From Sphingobacteriales bacterium (lineage in GTDB: Bacteria; Bacteroidota; Bacteroidia; Chitinophagales; UBA2359), in the NCBI GenBank assembly GCA_016711295.1, contig JADJTE010000009.1, forward strand, positions 56,919 to 120,918: a DNA stretch of 64,000 bases. The letters are read 5' to 3'. The notes beneath the pieces were generated by a model that saw only the letters and a list, made by a program, of their open reading frames with translations, searched no databases and had not been told where the DNA came from. A program made the position numbers and the translations under genes. How positions within the stretch are numbered: the stretch's first letter is position 1; each line of letters opens with the position of its first letter. This document shows positions 3,293 through 51,168 of this stretch, piece after piece.

Positions 3293-3421
3293 GTAACTAT
3301 TTAGGGTATGGGGTTTTGGGTATGGGGTAATGGTCAATACCCATCTAATAATGCCCGAAATCATAGCATATTCGATTAGAAATAGCTATTCTTGGGGGCT
3401 GCCCCTAGGCTAAATAGTCAC
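3293..3421. mobile_element. MITE-like element, family 1 (GTAACTATTTAG terminal inverted repeats), copy a
   Basis: This 129-bp element starts gtaactatttagg and ends ggctaaatagtcac. It is flanked by a direct 8-bp duplication, ATTAAATC, at 3285-3292 and 3422-3429. It is similar along its length to 53746-53877. Confidence 0.75.
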
Positions 3422-3479
3422 ATTAAATCAATAATTCGTGCTTAAAACATTAATTTATATGATATTCATTATTCAAATT

Positions 3480-35322: not shown

Positions 35323-36603
35323 ATGATTAGCTACGATAAATTTAGCCTTGACAATGGCTTGCGCATCGTCGTACACCACGACCCCAATACGCCCTTAGCT
35401 ACTGTCAATATCTTATATGATGTAGGTTCGCGCGATGAAAGCGAAAGCCGCACAGGTTTTGCTCACCTTTTTGAACACCTCATGTTCGAAGGCTCCGTCA
35501 ATATACCCGATTATGACGAACACGTACACTTAGCGGGCGGCGAGTCTAATGCCTTTACCAGCAGCGATATGACCAATTATTATATAACGCTGCCCGTACA
35601 TAATATCGAAACTGCCTTTTGGCTCGAATCAGACCGTATGCTTAGTTTGGCTTTTAGCGAAGAAGCACTCGCCGTCCAAAAAGGCGTAGTCTGTGAAGAA
35701 TTTAAAGAACATTATATCAACCAACCCTATGGCGATTGGATGCACAAAATGCGTGCCTTATGTTTTACAACCCACCCTTATAAATGGCTGACTATCGGCA
35801 AAGAATTGTCACATATAGAACAAGCCACCCTATCCGATGTACGCGCTTTCTTTTTCCAACACTATCGCCCCAATAATGCCATTTTGTGCGTAGCAGGTAA
35901 TGTGACGAGCGAGCAAGTGCGCCAATTAGCCCAAAAATGGTTTGGTGATATCCCGCCGTCCGAAAAACCTTACCACCGCCAGCTACCCGCCGAACCTGCA
36001 CAAACCACGTTTCGCAGCCAACACATCTATGCCAATGTACCTATCGACGCGCTGTATATGGCATTCCATATCGGCGATAGATTAAGCCCCAGCTATCACC
36101 CCACCGCTTTTATCTGCGATATATTGTCGAGCGGCGCATCAGGGCGGCTATACCAACATTTAGTAAAAGACCAAACCCTATTCAGCAGCCTGCACGCTTA
36201 TTCGTGGGACGAACACGACCCAGGATTGCTGTATATCGAGGGCAAACTCAATAAAGGTGTGACATTAGAAAGTGCCGAAACAGCTATCTGGCACGAACTC
36301 GAACAATTGTGCCAAATGCCTGTATCGGAAGACGAACTTGGCAAAGTGCGCAACAAGGTCGAGGCGGCTATCGTCTTCAATGAAGTAGGACTGAGCGACC
36401 GCGCTTTTTCGCTCGCTTACTACGAGCTGTTGGGCGATATTGACGAAATAAACAACGAAATTGACAAATACCTGCGCGTGACGGCTGCCGACATACAGCA
36501 GACGGCGCAGCAAATTTTTAGCCGCGAAAACTGCTCCGTTCTCTATTACCACGCCCAGCCCCCCAGCGAAGCCGCCGAACAAAATGCCGATGCAAGCACC
36601 TAA
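35323..36603 (+). CDS. M16 (pitrilysin/insulinase) family zinc peptidase
   Basis: The HxxEH zinc motif is present (GFAHLFEHLMFEGS). The ORF is 426 aa. Confidence 0.85.
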   Translation: MISYDKFSLDNGLRIVVHHDPNTPLATVNILYDVGSRDESESRTGFAHLFEHLMFEGSVNIPDYDEHVHLAGGESNAFTSSDMTNYYITLPVHNIETAFWLESDRMLSLAFSEEALAVQKGVVCEEFKEHYINQPYGDWMHKMRALCFTTHPYKWLTIGKELSHIEQATLSDVRAFFFQHYRPNNAILCVAGNVTSEQVRQLAQKWFGDIPPSEKPYHRQLPAEPAQTTFRSQHIYANVPIDALYMAFHIGDRLSPSYHPTAFICDILSSGASGRLYQHLVKDQTLFSSLHAYSWDEHDPGLLYIEGKLNKGVTLESAETAIWHELEQLCQMPVSEDELGKVRNKVEAAIVFNEVGLSDRAFSLAYYELLGDIDEINNEIDKYLRVTAADIQQTAQQIFSRENCSVLYYHAQPPSEAAEQNADAST

Positions 36604-37493
36604 TATACCCACCGAGCACAAAGCGGGATTTGTCAATATAATAGGCAAACCCAACGTAGGAAAATCAACCCTGATGAACGCCTTAGTCGGCGAGCGGCTA
36701 TCTATCATCACCTCCAAAGCCCAAACTACGCGCCACCGCATATTGGGCATTGTCAATGGCGACGATTTCCAAATCGTATATTCCGACACGCCGGGCGTAC
36801 TAAAACCCGCCTACAAAATGCAGGAAGCGATGATGCGTTTTGTCTATCAATCATTTGACGATGCCGATATATTGTTGGTGATGGCTGATGCATCTGAAAA
36901 AAAAGACCGCGACATAGCCTTAGTTGCCGACAAAATCAACCGCAGCGAGGCAAAGGTGATTTTTCTGCTCAACAAAGTCGATTTGGTCACCGCTGCCGAT
37001 GCCGAACAACAATTAGCCTATTGGCGAAGCCAAATAAAAGCAACTGCCTACTTGCCCGTTTCCGCACTTACGGGGCATAATTTGACCGCGCTTTTCGACA
37101 CCATTCTATCCAATTTGCCTTTGTCGCCGCCTTATTATCCCGACAAAGAAGAATTGACCGACCGCCCCGAACGCTTTTTCGTATCCGAAATTATCCGAGA
37201 AAAAATATTGCTCACCTACCACCAAGAAATACCTTATTCGGTAGAAGTCGTCATCGATAGCTTTAAGGAAGACGACGAAATGGTGCGGATAGAAGCCATC
37301 ATTTGGGCAAATCGCGAATCCCAAAAACCTATCCTCATCGGCAAAAATGGCAAAAACTTGACCAAAGTAGGTACGGCTGCCCGAATGGATATAGAGCGAT
37401 TTTTGGAAAAAAGTCTATTTAGGCTTGCGCATCAAGGTGCGCGAAGGATGGCGCGAAAACGAAACCTTGCTCAAAAATTTAGGCTATCAATAA
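36584..37493 (+). CDS. era: GTPase Era; frame break in A-run 37407-37412
   Basis: It carries GKPNVGKSTLMN, DTPG, NKVD and a KH domain. Removing one A from the run gives ...FLEKVYLGLRIKVREGWRENETLLKNLGYQ*, with the stop at 37491-37493. Confidence 0.9.
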
Positions 37494-37517
37494 ATATTCT
37501 GCTTCGTACTATATTAT

Positions 37518-38080
37518 ATGTGGCATATAAACCAAGACCAAGCCCTATTTTTAGACCGAGACGGCGTTATCAACCGCAAAATAGAGCAAGGCTATGTGTT
37601 GCGTTGGTCCGAATTTGAATTTATGCCCAATGCCCTAAGCGCGATAGCTCATCTGAGCCGTTTGTTTGGGCGCATTATCGGGGTAACGAACCAACAATGT
37701 GTAGGCAAGCGCATGATGTTGGAAACCGACCTAATAGCCCTGCTATACCAAATGACCGATTGCGTGGCGCAACACGGCGGGCGATTCGATGCGTTCTATT
37801 ATTGCCCACATCTGGCTTACGAAAATTGTGGCTGCCGCAAACCTGCTATCGGCATGGCGCGACAAGCACAAGCCGACTACCCCGACATCGATTTGAAACG
37901 AGTCCATTATGGTCGGCGATTCGGTGAGCGACCTACAATTTGGTCCGGGGCGCGGGTATGCAGACGGTATTTATACACCACCAAGCACCCAGCTCAGATG
38001 CCGAAAATGCCCATTTAGCCCATGCACAATACGATTCGCTGGCTGCCTTTGCCGCAGATTGCCGCAGCGCGACCACATAG
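37518..38080 (+). CDS. gmhB: D,D-heptose 1,7-bisphosphate phosphatase-like HAD-IIIA hydrolase; two frame breaks
   Basis: The N-terminal part reads ALFLDRDGVIN...VTNQ...CRKP. ORF 37909 continues with MVGDSVSDLQFG. My own translation of a third frame gives the C-terminus ...GAGMQTVFIHHQAPSSDAENAHLAHAQYDSLAAFAADCRSATT*, with the stop at 38078-38080. Confidence 0.75.
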
Positions 38081-38367: not shown

Positions 38368-38870
38368 TATTAGGATTTCGCCCCTAATGGGGCTTTGGCT
38401 TTGATGATATTTTCGTTTGTTATTAGGATTTCGCCCCTATGGGGCTTTGGCTTTGGTGATTGTTATTCTTTTCTATTAGCAGGTCGCTCCTACGAAGCTA
38501 TTAGGAGGACATCCCGATGGGGTTTCGTTTCGATGATGTTTTCGTTTGTTATTAGGATTTCGCCCATACGGGGCTTTGTTGGTGATTGTTATTCTTTTCT
38601 ATTAGCATGTCGCTCCTACGAAGCTATTAGGAGGACATCCCGATGGGGTTTCGTTTCGATGATGTTTTCGTTTGTTATTAGGATTTCGCCCATACGGGGC
38701 TTTGTTGGTGATTGTTATTCTTTTCTATTAGCATGTCGCTCCTACGGAGCTATTAGGAGGGCACCCCGATGGGGTTTCGTTTCGATGATGTTTTCGTTTG
38801 TTATTAGGATTTCGCCCCTAATGGGGCTTTGGCTTTGGTGCTGTTTGGGTTTTCTATTAAAATTTCGTAA
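38368..38870. repeat. tandem repeat array A (~126-bp unit, about 3.5 full copies plus degenerate copies)
   Basis: The motif ttattaggatttcgccc recurs at 38368, 38420, 38549, 38675 and 38801. Each unit is built from short hairpin modules (gcccc-n-ggggc, gctcctacggagc, cccgatgggg). The 175-aa ORF 38395-38922 is repeat-derived. Confidence 0.85.
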
Positions 38871-38940
38871 ATCATTTAATACCGAAAACTGCCCTTATTT
38901 CATACAATACATTCAAAAATAAATTTGTTATTTTAAATAA

Positions 38941-39426
38941 GTGTTGCAAGTAAAAATATTTACCATACCCATTACCGATGATGGTCGATTTACAGACGAG
39001 TTGAACAAATTTTTGCGTTCGCACAAAATTTTGGAGGTACAACAGCAACTAAGCACCCATGACAACGGTGCGTTTTGGTGTTTTTGTATCAGATACTTGC
39101 CCCATACCTTGACCCATATCGAGGCAGGGCGGAGCGGCAAAATCGACTACCGCGAAACGCTGAACGAGGCAGCATTCAAAAAATTTTCGCGTTTTCGCGA
39201 AATCCGAAAACAGCTGGCTGCCGAAGACGGCGTGCCCGCCTATGCCGTATTTACGGACGAAGAGTTGGCAAACCTATCTCAGCTTGCTGCGCTCGACCTC
39301 AAGGGGCTTAAAAGCATAAAGGGCATCGGCGATAAAAAAGCCGACCGCTACGGCGCAAAGATGCTCAACATATACCACCAAACCTTATTGTCGGCATCGC
39401 CCGACGATGATTCGGTACAGCCATGA
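38941..39426 (+). CDS. DGR accessory protein with C-terminal HRDC domain
   Basis: This is a 161-aa ORF with a GTG start. The C-terminal half, FKKFSRFREIRKQLAAEDGVPAYAVFTDEELANLSQ...LKSIKGIGDKKADRYGAKML, matches the RecQ/RNase D HRDC pattern. Its stop overlaps the RT start (ATGA). Confidence 0.8.
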   Translation: MLQVKIFTIPITDDGRFTDELNKFLRSHKILEVQQQLSTHDNGAFWCFCIRYLPHTLTHIEAGRSGKIDYRETLNEAAFKKFSRFREIRKQLAAEDGVPAYAVFTDEELANLSQLAALDLKGLKSIKGIGDKKADRYGAKMLNIYHQTLLSASPDDDSVQP

Positions 39427-40418
39427 AACGAGCCGGTTTTTTAGTGGGGCAAATTGCCGATATGAACAATTTGTATCTGGCATTTTGGAAAGCCAAACGC
39501 GGCAAAAGTACGCGCGAAGGAGTGCTGAACTACCAGACTGACCTGTTGCCCAACCTGCAATCACTGAGTGCCGAGATAATGAACGGCACTTTGCAACTTG
39601 GAAATTATCATTATTTCACGGTTTACGAACCCAAAGAACGCAAAATTTGTGCCGCCTCGTTCAAAGAGCGCGTGTTGCACCATGCCTTGATGAACGTATG
39701 TCACCCCTATTTCGAGCGGCGGCAAATTTTTGACAGCTATGCCAGCCGTCCCCAAAAAGGCATACACGCCGCGCTACGACGCGCGCAACAATTTGGCCGC
39801 CGATACGAATGGTATCTGAAATTGGATGTCCGGCATTTTTTTGACAGCATCGACCACGATATCGTCAAACAACAGCTATCGAGGCTATTCAAAGATACCC
39901 AATTGCTCGATATCTGGCACCGAATATTGGATAGCTACGAAGTCCAGCCCGGCAAAGGCGTGCCCATCGGCAACCTAAGCAGCCAATACATATCCAATCA
40001 TTACCTATCAGGCATAGACCGATATGCCTACCAAGTGGCCGGCGCACAAGGCTATGTACGCTACATGGACGATATGATACTGTGGCATAACGACAAAAAC
40101 GCCTTGCTATCGGCTCTGTCACTGATTGAGGGCTACCTGCACGAACGCCTGAAACTACGGCTCAAACCCGCCATAGTGGGACGAACGGCACAAGGACTGC
40201 CGTTTTTGGGCTTTGTCGTTCGTCGTTTCGACCTAGGGCTGCAACGAGCTGGAAAGCAACGCTACTACAAAAAATTGAAACGGCTTTGTTGCTGCTTGAA
40301 ACACCAACAACTAAGCCCCATTGATTTTCAACGCCGTGTGCAATGCCTTGCCTCCTTTGTTCGGCATGCTCGTTCGCTAAAATTTCGGCAAAAAACCGTT
40401 CGGAGGCTGCGTTGCTAA
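39423..40418 (+). CDS. DGR-type reverse transcriptase
   Basis: This is a 331-aa ORF. It has the catalytic YVRYMDDMILW and the DGR-diagnostic [ILV]GxxxSQ motif (PIGNLSSQ). There is no maturase or endonuclease domain. A TR/VR pair lies adjacent. Confidence 0.9.
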   Translation: MKRAGFLVGQIADMNNLYLAFWKAKRGKSTREGVLNYQTDLLPNLQSLSAEIMNGTLQLGNYHYFTVYEPKERKICAASFKERVLHHALMNVCHPYFERRQIFDSYASRPQKGIHAALRRAQQFGRRYEWYLKLDVRHFFDSIDHDIVKQQLSRLFKDTQLLDIWHRILDSYEVQPGKGVPIGNLSSQYISNHYLSGIDRYAYQVAGAQGYVRYMDDMILWHNDKNALLSALSLIEGYLHERLKLRLKPAIVGRTAQGLPFLGFVVRRFDLGLQRAGKQRYYKKLKRLCCCLKHQQLSPIDFQRRVQCLASFVRHARSLKFRQKTVRRLRC

Positions 40419-40585: not shown

Positions 40586-40676
40586 CCATCAAAAAAAACA
40601 TTTCGCCCTCGCTTGAAAGCACAAGGGCAGGAAAACATCGCTGGACACAGCGGGACATCCATCCGTTTGCTTTGTG

Positions 40677-40798
40677 CTGGAAGGCAGAGCCAGCCGAAAA
40701 CCGTAGTTGTTGTTGCGGTTAGCGGGCGTGTTGTTGTTGCGGTTAGCCATCCGGCAGTTGACGGCGTTGTTGTTCCACGAGCCGCCGCGCAACACACG
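40677..40798 (-). repeat. DGR template repeat (TR), 122 nt
   Basis: It aligns with VR 41049-41170. The minus strand encodes (in frame with the VR) [39 protein letters not shown], with 12 AAC codons. The ORFs called here (40589-40795, 40507-40806) are TR artefacts. Confidence 0.88.
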
Positions 40799-40898
40799 CG
40801 GTGCAAAGGCCTTATGCGATATTACCCAATCGAAAAAACGATTTTTATATTAAAAAATATACAATATGTATTTTTTGAAAAAATTTTTTGCCTACAGG

Positions 40899-40906
40899 CA
40901 AAGCTA
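40899..40906 (-). promoter_or_regulatory. candidate -7 box (TAGCTTTG on minus strand) upstream of TR
   Basis: The plus strand reads caaagcta. It matches TAnnTTTG about 100 nt 5' of the TR in minus orientation and overlaps a small hairpin (ttgcc-tgt-aggcaa). Confidence 0.3.
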
Positions 40907-40926
40907 TCTAACAGCCCAACAGCCTA

Positions 40927-41001
40927 ACTTTTCGAACCATTGCAGCCCACTTGCAGCCGCTCCGCTTGGCTGCCACGTCGGGCTGCAATAGCTCGAAAAG
41001 T
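40927..41001 (-). other. long inverted repeat (hairpin/cruciform) 3' of the VR
   Basis: The arms are acttttcgaaccattgcagccc (40927-40948) and gggctgcaatagctcgaaaagt (40980-41001), complementary at 19 of 22 positions. An inner gcagcc/ggctgc stem is also present. It lies 48-122 nt beyond the VR end. Confidence 0.7.
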
Positions 41002-41041
41002 ATTCTTCTTTTGCACAAAGCAAACAGACGGATGAACCCAA

Positions 41042-43021
41042 CTATGCCCTGGAAGGCAGAGCCAGCCGAAAACCGCAGTCGGTGAAGTGGTCGGCGGGCG
41101 CGTCGGTGTCGCGGCGAGCCAAACGGCAGCGGACGGCGAGGTTGCCCCACGAGCCGCCGCGCAACACACGGTAATTGCCCGATTGTGGACCGTGCGGGTT
41201 GGCTTGGGCTTCGGCTTTGTAGGAACCATACCAGTCTTGGCACCACTCCCATACATTGCCGCTCATGTCGTACAAGCCCAATTCGTTGGGTTTTTTCAGC
41301 CCCACGATTTGTGTTGAGCCGCCGCTGTTGACCGAGAAATGGGCTACATCTCCCAGTTCGTCGCTGCCGGCATATTTGTAGCCCTTGCTTTTTTGTCCGC
41401 CGCGGGCGCCATATTCCCATTCGGCTTCGGTGAGCAGGCGGTAGCCCGCGGGCAGCCCTTTTTCGACTGTCTGGGCGTTTAGTTTGCGGCAAAACTCTTG
41501 GGCATTGTCCCAGCTGACGTTGTCTACAGGCAGGCGGTTGCTGCCCCCAAAATGGCTGGGGTTACTGCCCATGACGGCGTAGTATTGGGCTTGGGTCACG
41601 GGGTATCTGCTGATATAAAAGCCCGATAGCGTGACCTCGTGTACGGGTTTTTCGCTGTCGCAGGCTTCGTCGTCGGTGCCGCCCATCCGGAAGGTGCCGC
41701 CTTCTACCCATACCATGTCGAGCGGAGTGCCATTTATATCTGCCACAAAATCGGCATCTTTGACCGGGGCTTCGGGTTCTGAGGTGGGTTCAGGACTATA
41801 GTCGTAGTTTTCGAACGTGATGGTGTGGGTGTGTGCATCGGTTTGGCGGGTGCGGTAGCTTTCTTCGTAGTCCAGCTGGTGTTGCTGCTCAATGAGCGTG
41901 AGTATATCACTGACCAAAAATAGGTCATTGAAGTATCGTTTTCTGCCCTGAAGCTGCTTGTCGGTTTCGTATACGTCGTCTTTAGTGGTGTTTGTTTTGT
42001 GCGTAACGTCTGTTTTGGCTTTGCCATCAAGTGCTCCCCAAAACGCCTTGACATCGGCATCTACGTTGCTATGGTGGTCGGTGTCGTGGCTATAGTGGTG
42101 TTCGTTTTTGGTTTTGTCCACTTGAAGCTCGATTACATCGGGTTCGTAGTCTTCTTTGCTCAACTTCTCTTTGGCAATATAAGCTTGGGAACTTTGCAGC
42201 AAAACCTCTGACTCCTTGTCTATGATGTTCATAAATTTTTCTACCAAGCCACTGAGGAGTTTGTTCGATACATCAGGCCGGTCTATCACTTGCTTGACGG
42301 CAATACTCCAGCCATCTTTTGCCAGCATTAATCGAACATCTTTGCGCTGTACCATTTTGCCTGGTGCCTCGCCTTTCAGAGAATCAGAATATTTAGTGCC
42401 CGCCACTTGTTTTGCCGTAATGGTGGTATAGTTGGTCTCGAAGGTGACTATTTGGGCATCGTATTGGCACTTGACGACAATACCCTCGGCGTTTTTCAGC
42501 ACAAAGTCCGCGTCGTCTTTGCTCATGAGCAGCGTCACGATGGCTTGTTGGTGCCCTGCGGTGCTGTCGAGTTGGTTCTGCGTGCTGCTAATGGATAGGG
42601 GAAACTCCTCGCCGTTGCAGGTAAAGTTCGTAAATTGTAGGTTATAGACCGTTTGGGCTTGGAGGCGCGTGGTGCCAAGTTGGTCATTGTCTTGGGTACT
42701 GGCAGCCAACAAGTTTTTTATTGCGCGGCTATTGAACGCTTCGTCGTTGAGGACGATATACACTTTGACGAGATATTGGTCGGGCTTGCGGGTTTTGGTC
42801 ATGGCGATTTTAAACCCGCCCTTGCCGTCGTGGGCAGGCAAGAAGAGGGGCAGATACTCGTATAGGCGGATGGTGTCGTCAGATTGTCCGCTTTTGGCAA
42901 CTACCTTGTTGATGGGGTGCGCTGGTGGTAGCGGCTTGCCGCCGTTGTAGCACATCGGGCTCAGTAGGATTACGTCGAGGGTTTTGGGCAAGTCGGTGGT
43001 TGTAATAAGTTTATTGGACAT
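41042..43021 (-). CDS. DGR target (variable) protein: unassigned ~440-aa N-terminal region + C-terminal FGE-sulfatase/C-type-lectin-fold domain carrying the VR
   Basis: This is a 659-aa ORF. The C-terminal ~210 aa, MVWVEGGTFRMGG...HEVTLSGFYISRYPVTQAQY...WEWCQDWY...[38 protein letters not shown], match the FGE-like fold used by many DGR variable proteins. The N-terminus MSNKLITTTDLPKT has no signal peptide. Confidence 0.88.
   Translation of the reverse strand: MSNKLITTTDLPKTLDVILLSPMCYNGGKPLPPAHPINKVVAKSGQSDDTIRLYEYLPLFLPAHDGKGGFKIAMTKTRKPDQYLVKVYIVLNDEAFNSRAIKNLLAASTQDNDQLGTTRLQAQTVYNLQFTNFTCNGEEFPLSISSTQNQLDSTAGHQQAIVTLLMSKDDADFVLKNAEGIVVKCQYDAQIVTFETNYTTITAKQVAGTKYSDSLKGEAPGKMVQRKDVRLMLAKDGWSIAVKQVIDRPDVSNKLLSGLVEKFMNIIDKESEVLLQSSQAYIAKEKLSKEDYEPDVIELQVDKTKNEHHYSHDTDHHSNVDADVKAFWGALDGKAKTDVTHKTNTTKDDVYETDKQLQGRKRYFNDLFLVSDILTLIEQQHQLDYEESYRTRQTDAHTHTITFENYDYSPEPTSEPEAPVKDADFVADINGTPLDMVWVEGGTFRMGGTDDEACDSEKPVHEVTLSGFYISRYPVTQAQYYAVMGSNPSHFGGSNRLPVDNVSWDNAQEFCRKLNAQTVEKGLPAGYRLLTEAEWEYGARGGQKSKGYKYAGSDELGDVAHFSVNSGGSTQIVGLKKPNELGLYDMSGNVWEWCQDWYGSYKAEAQANPHGPQSGNYRVLRGGSWGNLAVRCRLARRDTDAPADHFTDCGFRLALPSRA
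41049..41170 (-). repeat. DGR variable repeat (VR), 122 nt
   Basis: There are 22 mismatches to the TR, all within 41076-41146. Nineteen are at TR-adenine positions on the coding strand. The 27-nt and 24-nt flanks are identical. Confidence 0.88.
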
Positions 43022-44697: not shown

Positions 44698-46279
44698 ATG
44701 TCAAACGAGCATACTTTCCCCACTGGCGACCAAGCCATTGTTGCCCATAATATGGTCAAAGCGTTGGAAAACGAAAGAAAGCGCATTTCTTTCATTTTGC
44801 ACGATACTATCCAGCACCAGCTTCGGCTCATCAGAGACGAAGCCCCGCACAACATAAAGCCCCAAATCGACAGCGTGATTCAAGAATTGAGTGGCATCTG
44901 CCAGAGTTTGGTGCCCAGATCGCTTGAAGATTTTGATTTGGTGGATTACTTGCCGGTCTATATCGTCACCTTAATGCAAAAAAATTATTTTTTTATTAAT
45001 TATAAAAGTAACGTAAAACGCGCTTTTCCAAAAGAAATCGAAAGTCAGCTATATCACATACTGCAAGAGGCTATCACCAACATCATCAAGTACGCCGAAT
45101 CCCCCGCCGTACTCATCCGTTTTTGGGAATACGACGATAAACTGACCCTGTCCATACAAGATGTGGGCAAAGGGTTTGACATAAAACACGCAAGTGCCAC
45201 CTCAAACGGATTGTCATCTATGCACTTTCGGGCAGAAGCAATAGGGGGCATCTACGAAATTACGAGCGAGCCGGGCGACGGTACAAAAGTAAAAGTGACG
45301 ATTCCGAAAGATAAAATACCGCTCACCGAGCCGGTATCCGTCGCCGATATACCGCCAACGCTCTCGACAATGCCAATGGTGGCAGAGGTAAGCCCCAAAA
45401 TGAGTACTACCTCCCAATGCTTCTTGCTGCTCGACAATCAAAAAGAAGTATTGATAGGTTTGGAACAGATAATCAAAATGCACTATCCAGAGGCAAACAT
45501 TTTGACCGCCACCAATGTCGGCGATGCCTTAGCCCTACTGAGAGAGCATAGTGTCGATATAGCTATCTCGGACCTAACCCTGTTCGGCCAAACCCGGCTT
45601 TCTATTTATCCAAGAAGGAAAACAGCAAACCCCCGACACCAAATTTATCGTTTACTCCATCAACAACATACCCATATATATCGCAAGAGCGGTCAAACTA
45701 AAAGCGGACGGCTTTGTATATAAAGAAGATGAATGGGAATACGACGTACATCCACTCATAAAAGTTATGCAAGAAATAGTAGAAAGCAGTAAGCGCAGAA
45801 CGGGACCACAAACTTATTTTAGTAAAAAAATGAATGAAATTTACGAAACAATTAAAGAAAAAGCCAAGTCATCTAATATCGATAAAGACAGTATTAATAA
45901 AAATGTTTTTCTTATTTACGTAAAAATATTAAAAGATAAAAATTTTAAACCAAAAGAACATAAAACATTACACAAGGAGATTTACGATGCATTCAAAGAA
46001 ATTTATGAGCTTTATTATGAGAACAAACACAGAGGATTAAAAAAACATATAACAGAAAAAGGATATGATATAAAAAAATACGAAAAATTATTAAACAAAA
46101 TGGGTAGATCAAAAGAAAGAAAAGATTTCTCAGAAAAACAGATCGAAACTTTCGGAAAATATTTTAGGAATTTCAAACTCATATTGGAGGAACTAGATGA
46201 CAACGACAGATTCGGGCATCATTCTTTGCGTGAGCTATGTGAGGTATTTTGGGCAGAACTGGGAGATGACCCAGAGTAA
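44698..46279 (+). CDS. sensor-less hybrid histidine kinase (HisKA_3 + HATPase + receiver) with an A/T-rich Lys-rich C-terminal extension; one frame break (~45585-45596)
   Basis: The H-box is ENERKRISFILHDTIQHQL and the ATPase motifs are ILQEAITNIIKYA and DVGKGF. The receiver reads FLLLDNQ...ISDL...IVYS...LKADGFVYK. By my translation the receiver frame runs without a stop into ORF 45767-46279. Confidence 0.7.
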
Positions 46280-46381
46280 TACGGCATGTATTTCGGGGAA
46301 TTGCCTCATGAGTCCATCAAACCGCCCTACAAACAGGATTAAAACAAAAGGCGCAGAGCCTAAATAGTTACAAATATAGGT

Positions 46382-48049
46382 ATGAGACCATTTATTATAC
46401 TGCTTGGCATCGTTTGTTTTGTCAATACCACTTACATAGCAGGGCAAACTCCTGCGTTCCCGGGTGCCGAGGGCTTTGGAGCCAATGCCACAGGAGGGCG
46501 CGGCGGGCAAGTTATCTATGTAACCAACCTCAATTGCAATGGGCCAGGCTCGCTAAACGAAGCCTTAGCCGTACCCGGTGCTAAATATATTTTGTTTAAA
46601 GTAAGCGGCGTTATACAATGTGCCGCCCAAGTACTATATGGCGATGTCACCTTAGCAGGGCAAACCTCGCCCGGAGGCATTATTGTTCGCGGGCTGGTGG
46701 TCGATGAAATATACGAACCCGAAGGCACAGGCAACAATATAATTGTAAGGCATTTGCGCTCGCGCCCACAAAACCCCGATACCTACCCCGGAACAGGATG
46801 GATATTAGACGATGGGCTTAGGTTAGATGGTGCCCAAGATATTATAGTTGACCACTGCTCCTTTGCTAATGCCCTTGACGAAGCCACCCAAATATCGAAC
46901 AGCCAAAATATAAGCATTCAATATTGCCAATTAGCCGAAACCATTGGCTATCATTATATTTATGGCGGCATGTTGATTAACTATTCCGAACCCGACCACC
47001 CACAACAAAACATCAGCATACACCATAACGTATGGAACAGAATTGGCGGGCGTTTCCCCGAAATCTCTTGCGAATCGCCGTACTGCAATGCTTATCCATT
47101 AAATATCGAACTATCCAATAATCTGTTGTGGGATATTAATACAACCCTATGGTACGGCGCCAATATTGACCCATCGGGCGAGGATTATAGCTTTTTTGTG
47201 CATCTCAACTTTATAAATAATTATGCCGTTGGACGAGCCACCTATACCGAGGCAATGGCTGCTTCGAGCCTACTGAACTACCCACAAAACCAGCTATTTT
47301 CTTCTGACAATAGATTGAACCTCTACCCATCTTATGCCGATTACGATTTGTTCTATTGCTGTAACGATTTTAATTTGTATAACCCTAATACCGACTTGGG
47401 CATTGCTACCATATTAAGCACACCGCACAGTTTTCCCGCCATAACTTACCAAGCAACCAATAACCTACAAGCTCATTTGTCTCAACGAGTAGGTGCTTTT
47501 CCGCGCGATTCGATGGATAGGCGTTTGTTAGCCTCTGTTCAGAACAATACCATCAACCCATCGCCATTAAGCGACTTGGAGTTTGTTACTACCAGCGATG
47601 CTTTTTTGTTAGATGCCGATACCCCGCAAGCCCCCCAAGATACGGATAATGACGGTATGCCTAATTATTGGGAAACAGCCCACAGCTTAAATAATAGCCT
47701 GCAAGACCACAACAATACCAATTTATCGGTTTCTATAACGGGCATACCGGGCTACACAAACCTCGAATGTTACCTAAACTGCCTTGCAGATGCCTTGGTA
47801 AATGGCGGTTCAAGCCCCGAATGTGGCATACAATTAGCCAATTGCACTTTTGCCCCAAACATAACAGGCACCGCCCTTGCTTGCAATAACCAATTACAAA
47901 CATATTCGGTCGAGGCTATTGCAGGCAGTACCTATGTGTGGACGGTGACAGGCGGAACTATTCTAAACGGACAAGGCACCCACCAAATCGTAGTGCAATG
48001 GAGCAATGAAACATTAGGAACGGTAAATATTTTGCAAACTACCCCGTAA
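46382..48049 (+). CDS. secreted pectate-lyase-like right-handed beta-helix protein with a C-terminal PKD-like module
   Basis: It has a signal peptide. The N-terminal PAFPGAEGFGANATGGRGGQVIYVTNLNCNGPGSL is typical of PL1-like lyases. A DTDNDGMPNYWE calcium-type motif is present. The last ~65 aa resemble the C-terminus of ORF 21579-23075. Confidence 0.65.
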   Translation: MRPFIILLGIVCFVNTTYIAGQTPAFPGAEGFGANATGGRGGQVIYVTNLNCNGPGSLNEALAVPGAKYILFKVSGVIQCAAQVLYGDVTLAGQTSPGGIIVRGLVVDEIYEPEGTGNNIIVRHLRSRPQNPDTYPGTGWILDDGLRLDGAQDIIVDHCSFANALDEATQISNSQNISIQYCQLAETIGYHYIYGGMLINYSEPDHPQQNISIHHNVWNRIGGRFPEISCESPYCNAYPLNIELSNNLLWDINTTLWYGANIDPSGEDYSFFVHLNFINNYAVGRATYTEAMAASSLLNYPQNQLFSSDNRLNLYPSYADYDLFYCCNDFNLYNPNTDLGIATILSTPHSFPAITYQATNNLQAHLSQRVGAFPRDSMDRRLLASVQNNTINPSPLSDLEFVTTSDAFLLDADTPQAPQDTDNDGMPNYWETAHSLNNSLQDHNNTNLSVSITGIPGYTNLECYLNCLADALVNGGSSPECGIQLANCTFAPNITGTALACNNQLQTYSVEAIAGSTYVWTVTGGTILNGQGTHQIVVQWSNETLGTVNILQTTP

Positions 48050-48177
48050 GCCCGCTAACAACACAGCCGCTGAACAATGTGCTGCCGAAAAGCCACCAAA
48101 TGCCTAATAGAACGCCCCAAAAAAGACCAAACAGCTTATTACAGCGGTAAAAATGGCAAAAATTTGACCCAAAAAGC

Positions 48178-48390
48178 AGCAGCGCAAGCACATAGAACGA
48201 TTGGCGTTTCAAGTTCAAACTCGTGGGATTTCGCCCCTATGGGGCTTTGACTTTGATGTTGTTTGGGTTTTCTATTAGCATGTCGCTCCTACGGAGCTAT
48301 TAGGATGCCGCCCTTAAATGGGGCTATCGCTACGGTGGCTATCTCTTCGGCGGTTAAGCCGTAAAGTTGGCAAACCATGCAGTCTATTTG
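48178..48390 (+). repeat. ~206-bp direct repeat, copy 2 (partner 38064-38269)
   Basis: See copy 1. The minus strand here also carries a gene remnant, ...KALERQIDCMVCQLYGLTAEEIATV... Confidence 0.8.
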
Positions 48391-48548
48391 CCGCTCTAAT
48401 GCCTTGGCATAGCATTCATTGCGCAAATATGCCGATTTTTTAGAAACTGTAAAAACCTATACGTTAGGTCTCCTACAAGGAAAAAGCTACCTAATAGAGA
48501 CAATCACTATTAGGTAGCACTAACCCACAAAAATAGGGGCAAAATATG

Positions 48549-48637
48549 CGGAAAAGGAGGGATTCGAACCCCCGGTGCCTATTACTAAGCACACCTGATT
48601 TCGAGTCAGGCCCATTCAACCGCTCTGGCACTTTTCC
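48549..48637 (-). tRNA. tRNA-Ser (anticodon CGA)
   Basis: The minus strand reads GGAAAAG-TG-CCAGAGCGGTTGAATGG-G-CCTGA CTCGAAA TCAGG, then a long variable arm (GTGC..GCAC), then GGGGG TTCGAAT CCCTC-CTTTTCC-G. This gives a 7-bp acceptor stem, the T-loop TTCGAAT and a class II variable arm. Confidence 0.92.
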
Positions 48638-48749
48638 GAATTTGTGTTAGGATATTTCCGACACACATTAGGTTGCAAATGTACGGCGTTTCTGAATAAT
48701 TGCCAAGCCATCGAACAAATTAATTTTGTTCTTCTTTCTTGTGTGTGCG

Positions 48750-51168
48750 TCAATAGCCTGTTTTTATCAATTTTAGCTGCTGATTGCCGCAGCGCACCCA
48801 GTAGCTACCTGCGGGTACTTGCGCCCCCCATTGCCAAGAGCTATTGGGCAATAGGGTTTGTTGCGCTACCAATCTGCCGTATAGGTCAAATATTTGTAGG
48901 GTAGCCGCGCCGTCGAGGTTGTTATTATTGGCTGTGGCGGCGGGGCGCATGATTATGTTGGTCTGTTGTTCAAAGATAGAAGGTGCGGCACTCAATTGCG
49001 GTATATTGGCAGTGGGTATATCGGCAATATCCGCGCTATTATTCGTTCCGACGATAGCAAATTTATCAAAAGCCACTTCTACTATACCCGCGCTACCGTT
49101 GTTGCGGGCTTCTATCACAAAATACGTATTAGGTGTTTCAGCAATGAGCGCGTCGAGTGGCAATACAAACGACCGCCACGCATTACTGCCATTTTGTAGC
49201 GTATCGACCAGCAAGGTCGAAAACAACAAATCGCCATTACTGCCGTTATATATATTGCAAGTAGCATCGGTGGCGTTTGCCTCGTTTGCCAAACAATAAT
49301 ATAAATCGAAATGGAGCGCAGCCGTAGCATAGCCCGATAAATCTACGGCAGGCGATAGCAGCCGTGTACTGCCATTGTCCAAATCTACGTCTTCGGGAGG
49401 GGCATATCCGTCGGCGGTCGTATAGCAATAGCCGCCCCAGTCGTCGGGCGCATCGCTATAAAACGTACAACTCGACGCGCCTTGCGTGCCCGTAGGCACA
49501 ACGCGCAACCATTGCCCCGTCATGGTGTCTGTACTCTCGACCGTCCAGCCCAAATCGGTGGCAAAATCGTCGTAATAACCATAAGGCATAACAATAGTGA
49601 TAGTAGCGTTGGCATTATTGGCAGTATCGGCAAAAGGCAAGGTAGGCAATAGCCCCCAACGCGAAGCAGATATAATATAGGTATCGTCATAAAGCCCCTC
49701 GATAGAAGCAAGCCCCGCGCTATTGGTGGTCAGCGCATAAATGCCCTCGCTACTGCTGCTCGCCCAAGAGTTGCGCACTTCAAGTACGACGTTGGGCAGA
49801 CCATTACCATAGCTGTCATTGACCTGTACTTGCAAGGCAAAGGGTGATAAGGGCTGCATCTGCACATCGAGGTCGGTAAATTGAGCTTCGTTGAGTGTAA
49901 TGCTCGATATAGTAGGGGTTGGTAGCCATATTTTTCAAACATAATATCATAAGTACCGCTATTAGCAGTACCCATTCTGTACGTACCGCCAAAACGACTT
50001 TGGTCAAATGAACTCGTACCTACGATGGAAATGCGCACACCCGCCACACCCGCACCGCTAAGGGCATCGGTAATATTGCCTTGTAGGTAAGAAGCGCGTT
50101 GGTACTGCGGTCGGGTAATGAACAAGCCCTGTTGTCGGTCGCTGGCAATTAGGTTGCCCGAAGGTAAATATTGGTATACTCCCCAACAGCCCGCCGAACC
50201 ACCACCTGTATTAGGCGAAGTGTCGTAATATTCGGTTTCGACTAAGGCATCGGGCACATGCGCATCTATCACCCTAAAACCCGCCGTATAGTACGACAGA
50301 ATGATAAAATCGTTCAAGACATGCGCATTATGAGGCATAGTATTAGTGCCTGGATAGGCTTGGTAGCGGTCTAACTCGCGAATATCGTTTAGGTCGCTAA
50401 TGTCGTATGCTGCCATCGTAGCTCCGTCTCGTTCATCGGTCGTAAATATAGTGTGGCTATCATCTGACAACCAAGCATTATGCGTAAATGCATTAGGCGT
50501 GGTTTGGGTTGCCAACAAAACGGGGTTCAATTTGTCGCTGATATCGACAATGCTCAACTGCCCTGCATAAATTTCGGATACATACATCATATCATCGCGC
50601 ACAAAACAATCGTGGGCATAGTTTCCTTTATACGTATTGATATAGGTTGGCTGCGTAGGGTCGGGGTTAAGGTCAAACATCATCACCCTCGCTCGGCAAC
50701 GGGTATATCCAATGCCATATTGTTAAAACCATTGAGGTACAAAAAGCCATTTTCGTCAATCCAAAGGCTATGCACTCGCTTCACACGCCCTTGGGCAGTA
50801 AACTGAAAAGTATCGATAGCCGTAGGCAACTGGCTTAGGTCGATAATCGTTACGCCACCGTCGACCTCGTCTACTACGTATGCATAGCTCTGCCACGTCT
50901 TTATCTCGCGCCATATATTAAAGTCGTCGGGCACAAAAAAGAGTTCGTTGGGATTGGCAGGGTCGCTAATATCGACAATGCTCGTACCACTTTTTACACC
51001 TACCAGGGCATATTCTCTGCCTTCGGAGTCGGTATAGCCCCACAAACTACTCAGTCCATCGGGATAAAATTTACTGCCCAACAAAGGCATTTCGTTTTGC
51101 GCCTGCAAAGTAATAGACGCAAAACAAGCAAATAAAAAAGGCGATAAAGCCCAAAATAAGGTTTTCAT
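48750..51168 (-). CDS. secreted LVIVD-repeat (choice-of-anchor-B-like) protein with T9SS C-terminal sorting domain; two frame breaks
   Basis: ORFs 50683-51213 (signal peptide MKTLFWALSPFLFACFASITLQAQ from 51168), 49730-50686 and 48750-49865 join. The motifs xxIVDISD and IIDLS repeat. The C-terminal tail is LQIFDLYGRLVAQQ...GSYWVRCGNQ. Confidence 0.7.

Follow-up and report, generated by a model that had tools for sequence, protein, structure and literature searches.

In the mechanism of diversity-generating retroelements (DGRs), the main step yet to be solved is how the mutagenised cDNA locates its target and enters it; this has been called an unanswered question (Naorem et al. 2017, PMC5703328) and was still described as incompletely understood in a 2026 PLoS Genet study. 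For phage BPP-1, base pairing over ~9 nt was proposed between the cDNA-linked spacer RNA primer and the DNA of the IMH, which lies at the 3' end of the variable repeat (VR) (Naorem et al. 2017, PMC5703328). We verified this match, in which the reverse complement of ...GGUGGUCA56 in the spacer RNA equals TGACCACC in the VR. A stem-loop located after the VR works by structure and not by sequence in BPP-1, the only system in which this was tested (StRev rescue; Guo et al. 2011, PMC3240598), which counts against models of target choice by a guide. GC-rich stem-loops downstream of the VR are found in 34% of DGRs, and recognition was noted to have to reach further downstream in DGRs whose IMH and IMH* are identical (Wu et al. 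2018, PMC5758913). Directly after the template repeat (TR), a protein-binding stem-loop of ~9 bp with bulges was described in work that concerns cDNA priming and termination (Handa preprint).

Long complementarity between the flanks of TR and VR is not described in Guo 2011, Naorem 2017, Wu 2018, the Handa preprint, or the 2026 reconstitution study. The original prediction from which our analysis started had pointed to such complementarity at the locus presented here and knew of no complementary flank in the described mechanism, which is inaccurate in view of the ~9-nt pairing of primer RNA and IMH proposed for BPP-1 (Naorem 2017, PMC5703328). In BPP-1 itself, we found an extended colinear match of the reverse complement of Sp1-56 to VR118 onward (2831-2886 vs 3397-3459) with a score of 21.75 that was reached by 0/3000 shuffles. 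Among 60 loci of the BPP-1 clade, extended complementarity exceeded the shuffle threshold in only 4, and just the invariant 7-9-nt TGACCAC was conserved. A long duplex as a universal trait of DGRs was therefore rejected, and a long and variable duplex is a property of the HRDC-type clade described below and perhaps of others.

An HRDC-type DGR with its template unit opposite the reverse transcriptase

The window that we analyzed is a stretch of 64,000 nucleotides from a Sphingobacteriales bacterium (assembly GCA_016711295.1, contig JADJTE010000009.1, positions 56,919 to 120,918), and the coordinates given below are those of this window. It contains a complete HRDC-type DGR. On the plus strand, the gene for an HRDC-domain accessory protein (38941-39426, 161 aa; Pfam HRDC, E 1.9e-14) lies upstream of the gene for the DGR reverse transcriptase (RT; 39423-40418, 331 aa; Pfam RVT_1, E 4e-18) and overlaps its start. 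The RT motifs IGNLSSQ and YMDD, read off the sequence, fit the DGR-type [LIV]GxxxSQ and YxDD. On the minus strand, TR (40677-40798) and VR (41049-41170) are direct repeats of each other, with the VR forming the 3' end of a target gene of 659 aa (41042-43021) that encodes a C-terminal FGE-sulfatase / C-type-lectin-like domain (Pfam FGE-sulfatase, E 8e-53, residues 435-654) and has its stop codon 5 nt past the VR end. Over the 122 nt of the repeat, read on the minus strand, TR and VR show 22 differences of which 19 fall on TR adenines, and the element has therefore been active. In having an HRDC gene beside the RT and a target of the CLec/FGE-sulfatase type, the locus resembles the HRDC "Architecture C" DGRs like that of Treponema denticola (Wu 2018).

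The layout of the cassette differs from the usual one, in which the TR lies beside the RT on the same strand. Here, the TR is found 260 nt downstream of the RT gene on the opposite strand, a variation that is permitted among DGRs (Wu et al. 2018, PMC5758913) and thus does not exclude the locus from membership. The TR-spacer unit and the target gene (40590-43021, minus strand) converge on the HRDC and RT genes (38941-40418, plus strand), which is the sole such case among ~115 related loci with a TR/VR pair; all others share the canonical order target-VR-F-HRDC-RT-TR-spacer on one strand (F and F' are defined in the next section). An RT search of 41 related genomes, 185k species genomes, and metagenome contigs, with identities of up to 53%, found no closer relative with the same inverted layout.

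Read 5' to 3' on the minus strand, the order in the window is target, VR, F, a long hairpin, a terminator-like hairpin, an AT-rich stretch, TR, F', and a second spacer hairpin with a T-run. The terminator-like hairpin with its own T-run (40887-40902, minus strand; terminator-like match) follows the target gene between F and TR, and the AT-rich stretch between this terminator and the TR (40810-40886, minus strand) would presumably hold the promoter of the TR RNA. Pattern scans upstream of the TR matched neither a sigma-70 consensus nor the Bacteroidota -33/-7 consensus (TTTG/TAnnTTTG). At the other end, the second spacer hairpin (stem 40629-40604) and the T-run behind it (together 40590-40629, minus strand; terminator-like match) mark the probable 3' end of a free-standing TR RNA. 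This hairpin aligns with a conserved CCC...GGG hairpin in the spacers of relatives, but the run of eight T that follows it is a feature of the window locus only and has no counterpart there, so that the hairpin seems to double as an intrinsic terminator. The T-run that relatives lack suggests that the TR-spacer unit is a separate transcript. Lying on the strand opposite the HRDC and RT genes, it would be a separately transcribed template RNA that acts in trans, and it would work in trans on the protein too. The second spacer hairpin is situated ~170 nt past the RT stop codon on the opposite strand.

An ORF of 175 aa (38395-38922, plus strand) immediately precedes the HRDC gene and has only sub-threshold Pfam matches (Dit_C, ROQ_II). 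The neighbours at 35323-37618 and 44698-45723 are of chromosomal housekeeping types, i.e., an M16 peptidase, an Era-like GTPase with a KH domain, and a histidine-kinase-like ATPase. No phage or recombinase genes were found among the neighbouring ORFs tested.

Complementary flanks of TR and VR in the window

We use F' for the ~35 nt of spacer RNA that come first after the TR and F for the 36 nt directly after the VR. F' (40642-40677, minus strand; GCACAAAGCAAACGGAUGGAUGUCCCGCUGUGUCC) contains a fold-back hairpin with a GGAU-containing loop, whereas its complementary arm F (41013-41048, minus strand; GGCATAGTTGGGTTCATCCGTCTGTTTGCTTTGTGC) includes the final codon of the target gene and its TAG stop. 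The observation behind the original prediction, that plus-strand 40660-40677 (CATCCGTTTGCTTTGTGC) equals the reverse complement of 41013-41034 save for a 4-nt offset, is confirmed by the sequence. A better register is free of gaps and matches 40656-40677 to 41013-41034, with 20 of the 22 nt complementary and both mismatches being G.U wobbles when read as minus-strand RNA. If bulges are allowed, the predicted duplex extends to ~34 bp between 41048->41013, starting from the first base after the VR, and 40677->~40642, starting from the last TR base, with a 1-nt ambiguity of the register at the TR/F' junction.

The claim that this match is unlikely to have arisen by chance holds: Local alignment of the reverse complement of the TR flank with the VR flank gave a score of 18, which was reached by 0/5000 dinucleotide shuffles. 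A dispersed repeat, the condition under which the observation was to be discarded, was rejected as well, given that the 18-mer occurs with up to 2 mismatches only at the two DGR copies in the 4.78-Mb genome, while the 4 matches with 3 mismatches are no commoner than those of a reversed control pattern. Co-folding, proposed as a check along with the initial observation, recovered the F:F' helix of 34 bp in both the minimum-energy and the centroid structure when a 466-nt stretch was treated as one RNA (z = -7.5). Shuffled and cross-locus controls, too, received implausibly low predicted duplex energies (about -42 kcal/mol), and we instead used local-alignment scores with controls throughout.

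Past the shared ...CCTTCCAG, the two flanks are without direct similarity (alignment scores at background), and the TR carries the complement of the VR flank instead of an imperfect direct copy of the IMH* kind. F starts at the repeat boundary, and the complementarity sits exactly where DGRs place their directionality determinants, as had been noted at the outset. No Rfam family was found for the region, with the lone match (MIR439, 27 bits against a threshold of 90, on the hairpin at 40927-41001) being spurious.

Conservation and covariation of the flanks in related DGRs

RT-based searches provided 80 loci from species genomes and 80 loci from metagenomes with 45-53% RT identity. These relatives are mostly Bacteroidota, including many Saprospiraceae, and most of the more than 160 RTs adjoin TR/VR pairs, which we detected by their adenine-specific mismatches. 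The HRDC gene was found at the same place in 5/5 tested relatives. In the genome set (68 loci with 79 distinct TR/VR pairs), 66 pairs scored above the 99th percentile of shuffles when the reverse complement of the TR 3' flank was aligned with the VR 3' flank, and the same was true for 39 of the 46 TR/VR pairs of the independent metagenome set. Related DGRs of the HRDC type thus do not lack the complementary flank pair, an outcome that would have spoken against the original prediction. Across the 79 pairs, the mean score at the own locus was 18.5 compared to 9.3 for cross-locus pairs, 7.6 for shuffled flanks, and 8.5 for the direct, non-inverted comparison, which is at background level. No significant match was seen within the fixed flank windows for 13/79 and 7/46 pairs, some of which are artefacts of repeat boundaries or insertions.

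What is conserved is the complementarity and not the sequence itself, a check that had been proposed with the initial observation, because the sequence of F and F' differs from locus to locus and changes in a compensatory manner. We aligned the outer 16-bp helix of 29 distinct loci and found that 97% of cells are paired, that 15 of the 16 pairs have changes on both sides, and that there are 121 compensatory cells compared to 32.6 in shuffles (0/500), though this alignment leans towards structure since it was built from loci already aligning without gaps, a weakness that the unselected score test does not have. In controls with a slid register, pairing falls to 31-44%.

The position of the two elements is similarly constrained. 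F starts 0-7 nt after the end of TR/VR homology in most aligned loci, and 0-4 nt after it in about two thirds, whereas F' starts with the last TR base. For 23 sequences including the window, the F' fold-back hairpin has a consensus of UCA:UGA closing pairs, GG:CC, AGC:GCU, and a conserved GGAU loop, and RNAalifold gave a consensus of 8 pairs of which 7 show compensatory changes. F mirrors this covarying hairpin of F', and its own fold is weak in the window (about 9 bp with bulges).

Two further observations concern the relation between one template and its targets. In 11 of the 13 loci that have two or three targets, F is retained at every VR, regardless of whether the VR is located upstream or downstream of the TR and at distances of up to ~4 kb. 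In five genomes with 2-4 such DGRs, the best-scoring partner of a TR flank was its own VR flank in 12 of 13 cases (18-24 vs 6-15). The genome of the window is one of these five: Outside the window, its contig C7 carries a second DGR of the same clade at about 46156-49900, in canonical order and with an RT that is 50% identical, which has its own, different F/F' pair (GCTCAACAATAGTAGG... / ...CCTATTATTGTTGAGC).

Strands that engage in pairing

The mismatches that remain between F and F' carry information on which strands pair, since a pairing of the sense VR flank with RNA of the sense TR flank should let transitions survive as G.U rather than A.C. Mismatches of the G.U type outnumber those of the A.C type by 72 to 13 in the genome set (p 5e-11) and by 50 to 6 in the metagenome set, i.e., 122 vs 19 overall, and the excess persists at positions that are unpaired in the predicted fold of each arm (41 vs 10, p 1.5e-5), though these p-values overstate the independence of the loci, which are phylogenetically related. 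The bias shows that the sense TR-flank RNA pairs with a sense strand, and its presence at intramolecularly unpaired positions shows that it does not merely come from the stems of the hairpins. This agrees with the statement that a TR RNA would be able to pair with the sense strand or the mRNA just 3' of the VR.

No adenine bias was found among the mismatches of F and F' (48/279). We had considered whether F might be written by the mutagenic DGR RT, but rejected this candidate because the mismatches are not concentrated at F' adenines as expected for a signature of adenine mutagenesis.

A proposed guide model for retrohoming and its alternatives

The best explanation of these data, and in our view probably the correct one, is that F' on the spacer RNA stays joined to the cDNA and pairs with F, docking the cDNA at the VR. 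F' would fold back as a hairpin that places its own 3' end beside the last TR nucleotide, and by analogy with spacer A56 of phage BPP-1, cDNA synthesis would be primed at this 3' end; the conserved CUGA-ACAG directly after F' is a candidate for the priming site. Priming at this position would leave the spacer RNA attached to the 5' end of the adenine-mutagenised cDNA, and the joined molecule 5'-F'(RNA)-cDNA-3' would be colinearly complementary to the sense strand 5'-VR-F-3'. F' could then anneal to F and the cDNA to the VR at the same time, probably where the DNA is transiently single-stranded. In agreement with this, the strand to which the cDNA is complementary preferentially serves as lagging-strand template, i.e., is single-stranded (2026 PLoS Genet study). 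The pairing of F and F' would dock the cDNA at the right gene and also set the direction of transfer, because the TR carries F' and not F and is therefore not a target itself. F and F' would thus do the job assigned to IMH and IMH*, but as a long and locus-specific address. We infer that the cDNA is primed at the position given above, that the partner of F' is DNA and not mRNA, and that the pairing is needed for integration, with the sequence fitting RNA-DNA and RNA-RNA pairing alike. The reading of the complementary flank as a possible guide, which had been raised for this locus initially, is the one best supported by the covariation, the strand bias, the register, the conservation at multiple targets, and the orthogonality within genomes.

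The same duplex could also form in trans between the TR-spacer RNA and the 3' untranslated end of the target mRNA, where it might tether the RT complex or affect the stability or termination of the mRNA. RNA-RNA pairing agrees with the sense-by-sense orientation and the G.U bias as well as RNA-DNA pairing does, and F is located upstream of the terminator-like hairpin of the target gene so that it would be part of the mRNA. However, a purely regulatory duplex gives no reason for F to start exactly at the repeat boundary with spacer RNA and cDNA being colinear with VR-F, and it does not account for why the TR itself is not a target. Overall, we consider this alternative unlikely.

If target and TR were co-transcribed, F:F' could instead close a loop that contains the TR and shape the template RNA by a long-range fold in cis, a possibility that had been part of the original prediction. 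It would be compatible with the helix obtained by co-folding of the 466-nt RNA and with the location of all parts on one strand in canonical relatives. But the two arms are separated by the terminator-like hairpin with its T-run (40902-40887) and by the AT-rich stretch in the window, and they are about 1.7 kb apart across two genes in relatives. Furthermore, the 11 of 13 multi-target loci in which each VR, at distances of up to ~4 kb, has retained an F of its own argue against it, given that only one F could pair in cis at a time. A fold in cis can therefore not be the conserved function and is not favoured, and we judge it improbable as an explanation although the arms in the window would pair if they were co-transcribed.

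We assign a similarly low probability to the idea that F is a by-product of retrohoming that was never selected for pairing and entered the target, repeatedly, through copying of the cDNA-attached RNA primer into DNA. Building on Naorem 2017, the complement of an RNA-cDNA molecule primed by snap-back would read "TR then reverse complement of the spacer", which is exactly the layout of VR-F, and apparent covariation would be expected from such copying, too. Yet the differences between F and the reverse complement of F' are biased to wobble-compatible types (122 vs 19), unlike copying errors, and recurrent indels set the two apart in many loci (e.g., TCAGTTGG vs TCAG-NGG). The lack of an adenine bias among the mismatches and the presence of the target's stop codon within F also speak against it, and marker transfer in BPP-1 stops upstream of the IMH (Naorem 2017, PMC5703328).

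Just as doubtful is the possibility that a stem-loop of one shape, present both in the spacer RNA and in the target DNA (as a cruciform, on the bottom strand), is read by the RT/HRDC complex without any mutual pairing of the two. Stem structure and not sequence matters in BPP-1 (Guo et al. 2011, PMC3240598), the stem-loop just downstream of the TR binds protein (Handa preprint), and both F' and F fold into a hairpin. But the intermolecular complementarity of ~28-34 bp greatly exceeds the ~8 bp within each hairpin, and covariation and G.U bias reach positions that are unpaired in either hairpin. Recognition of shape would, moreover, require co-evolution of the protein at each locus with 15 freely varying positions.

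Finally, a DNA inversion switch, in which the inverted repeats recombine and flip a 335-bp segment carrying the TR and its promoter, is highly improbable: Invertons are common in Bacteroidota, the inverted repeats flank an AT-rich segment, and this is the sole locus of ~115 with the TR opposite the RT, but the same arms flank the accessory and RT genes in relatives, orientation is constant in ~115 relatives, the neighbouring ORFs that were tested yielded no recombinase domain, and flipping 40678-41012 would not restore the canonical order.

Implications for target choice in HRDC-type DGRs

If the guide model applies, it may extend to the HRDC-type clade of Bacteroidota as a whole, though we advance this broader proposal tentatively and give it slightly less than even weight. 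Retrohoming would then be RNA-guided in the sense that a freely evolvable spacer address of ~30 nt, and not TR/VR homology or a motif read by a protein, picks the target gene and keeps co-resident DGRs orthogonal. A long RNA-target complementarity with covariation would be comparative evidence that the cDNA finds its target by base pairing. It could also explain the directionality of DGRs with indistinguishable IMH and IMH*, a problem that had been raised by Wu 2018, as well as the coexistence of several DGRs in one genome without cross-talk. The free-standing TR-spacer transcript of the window would be a natural trans-acting "template plus guide" RNA, and a joint change of F and F' would retarget a DGR, which could be a simple handle for DGR-based diversification tools.

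Group II introns use the pairing of exon-binding and intron-binding sites to select their DNA target. The proposed role of F' shares the logic by which the RNA of a retroelement picks a DNA target by pairing beside the site where the reverse-transcribed sequence enters, but the similarity ends there because the element described here has neither a ribozyme nor reverse splicing nor target-primed reverse transcription.

Relation to described DGR elements

Compared to BPP-1, the F:F' duplex is best read as an extension of the 9-nt primer-IMH pairing model. Like the IMH, F is located at the 3' end of the VR, is absent from the TR, and would set directionality, and in the window as in BPP-1 the spacer RNA 5' of the (in our case presumed) priming site is complementary to the VR end or flank and colinear with the cDNA. 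In contrast, the match in BPP-1 and its 60 relatives spans 7-9 nt, is invariant, and lies inside the imperfect TR/VR repeat, while that of the HRDC clade covers ~30-36 nt, starts where the repeat ends, varies from locus to locus with compensatory changes, and includes a hairpin. On this reading, the element would be a DGR with a directionality determinant in the form of a long and locus-specific RNA-target duplex, and not of a short and invariant IMH match.

The F' hairpin also resembles the stem-loop of the Handa preprint in being positioned directly after the TR and in having a conserved GGAU loop and covarying stems, and it may by analogy bind protein. The accessory protein is, however, of the HRDC type here and Avd in that system, and the stem-loop was not linked to the target flank in that work.

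A further conserved hairpin past F

F may resemble the stem-loop/cruciform of Guo 2011 in that an imperfect hairpin can be drawn within the ~35 nt that follow the VR, but the element of Guo 2011 is defined by structure alone with no reported relation to the TR flank, while F is the reverse complement of the TR flank including unpaired positions. A second, long hairpin follows F in the window (40927-41001, minus strand; inverted repeat and predicted fold), beginning 47 nt after the VR and composed of 22-nt arms that match at 91% with GCGGAGC at the apex. This second hairpin may be the true counterpart of the BPP-1 stem-loop. In relatives, the corresponding element is found 43-92 nt after the VR with the motif in the hairpin loop, and 86 of 118 distinct VRs are followed within 160 nt by GGGACGA or GCGGAGC/ACGGAGY, compared to an expectation of 0.01-0.02 per 160 nt.
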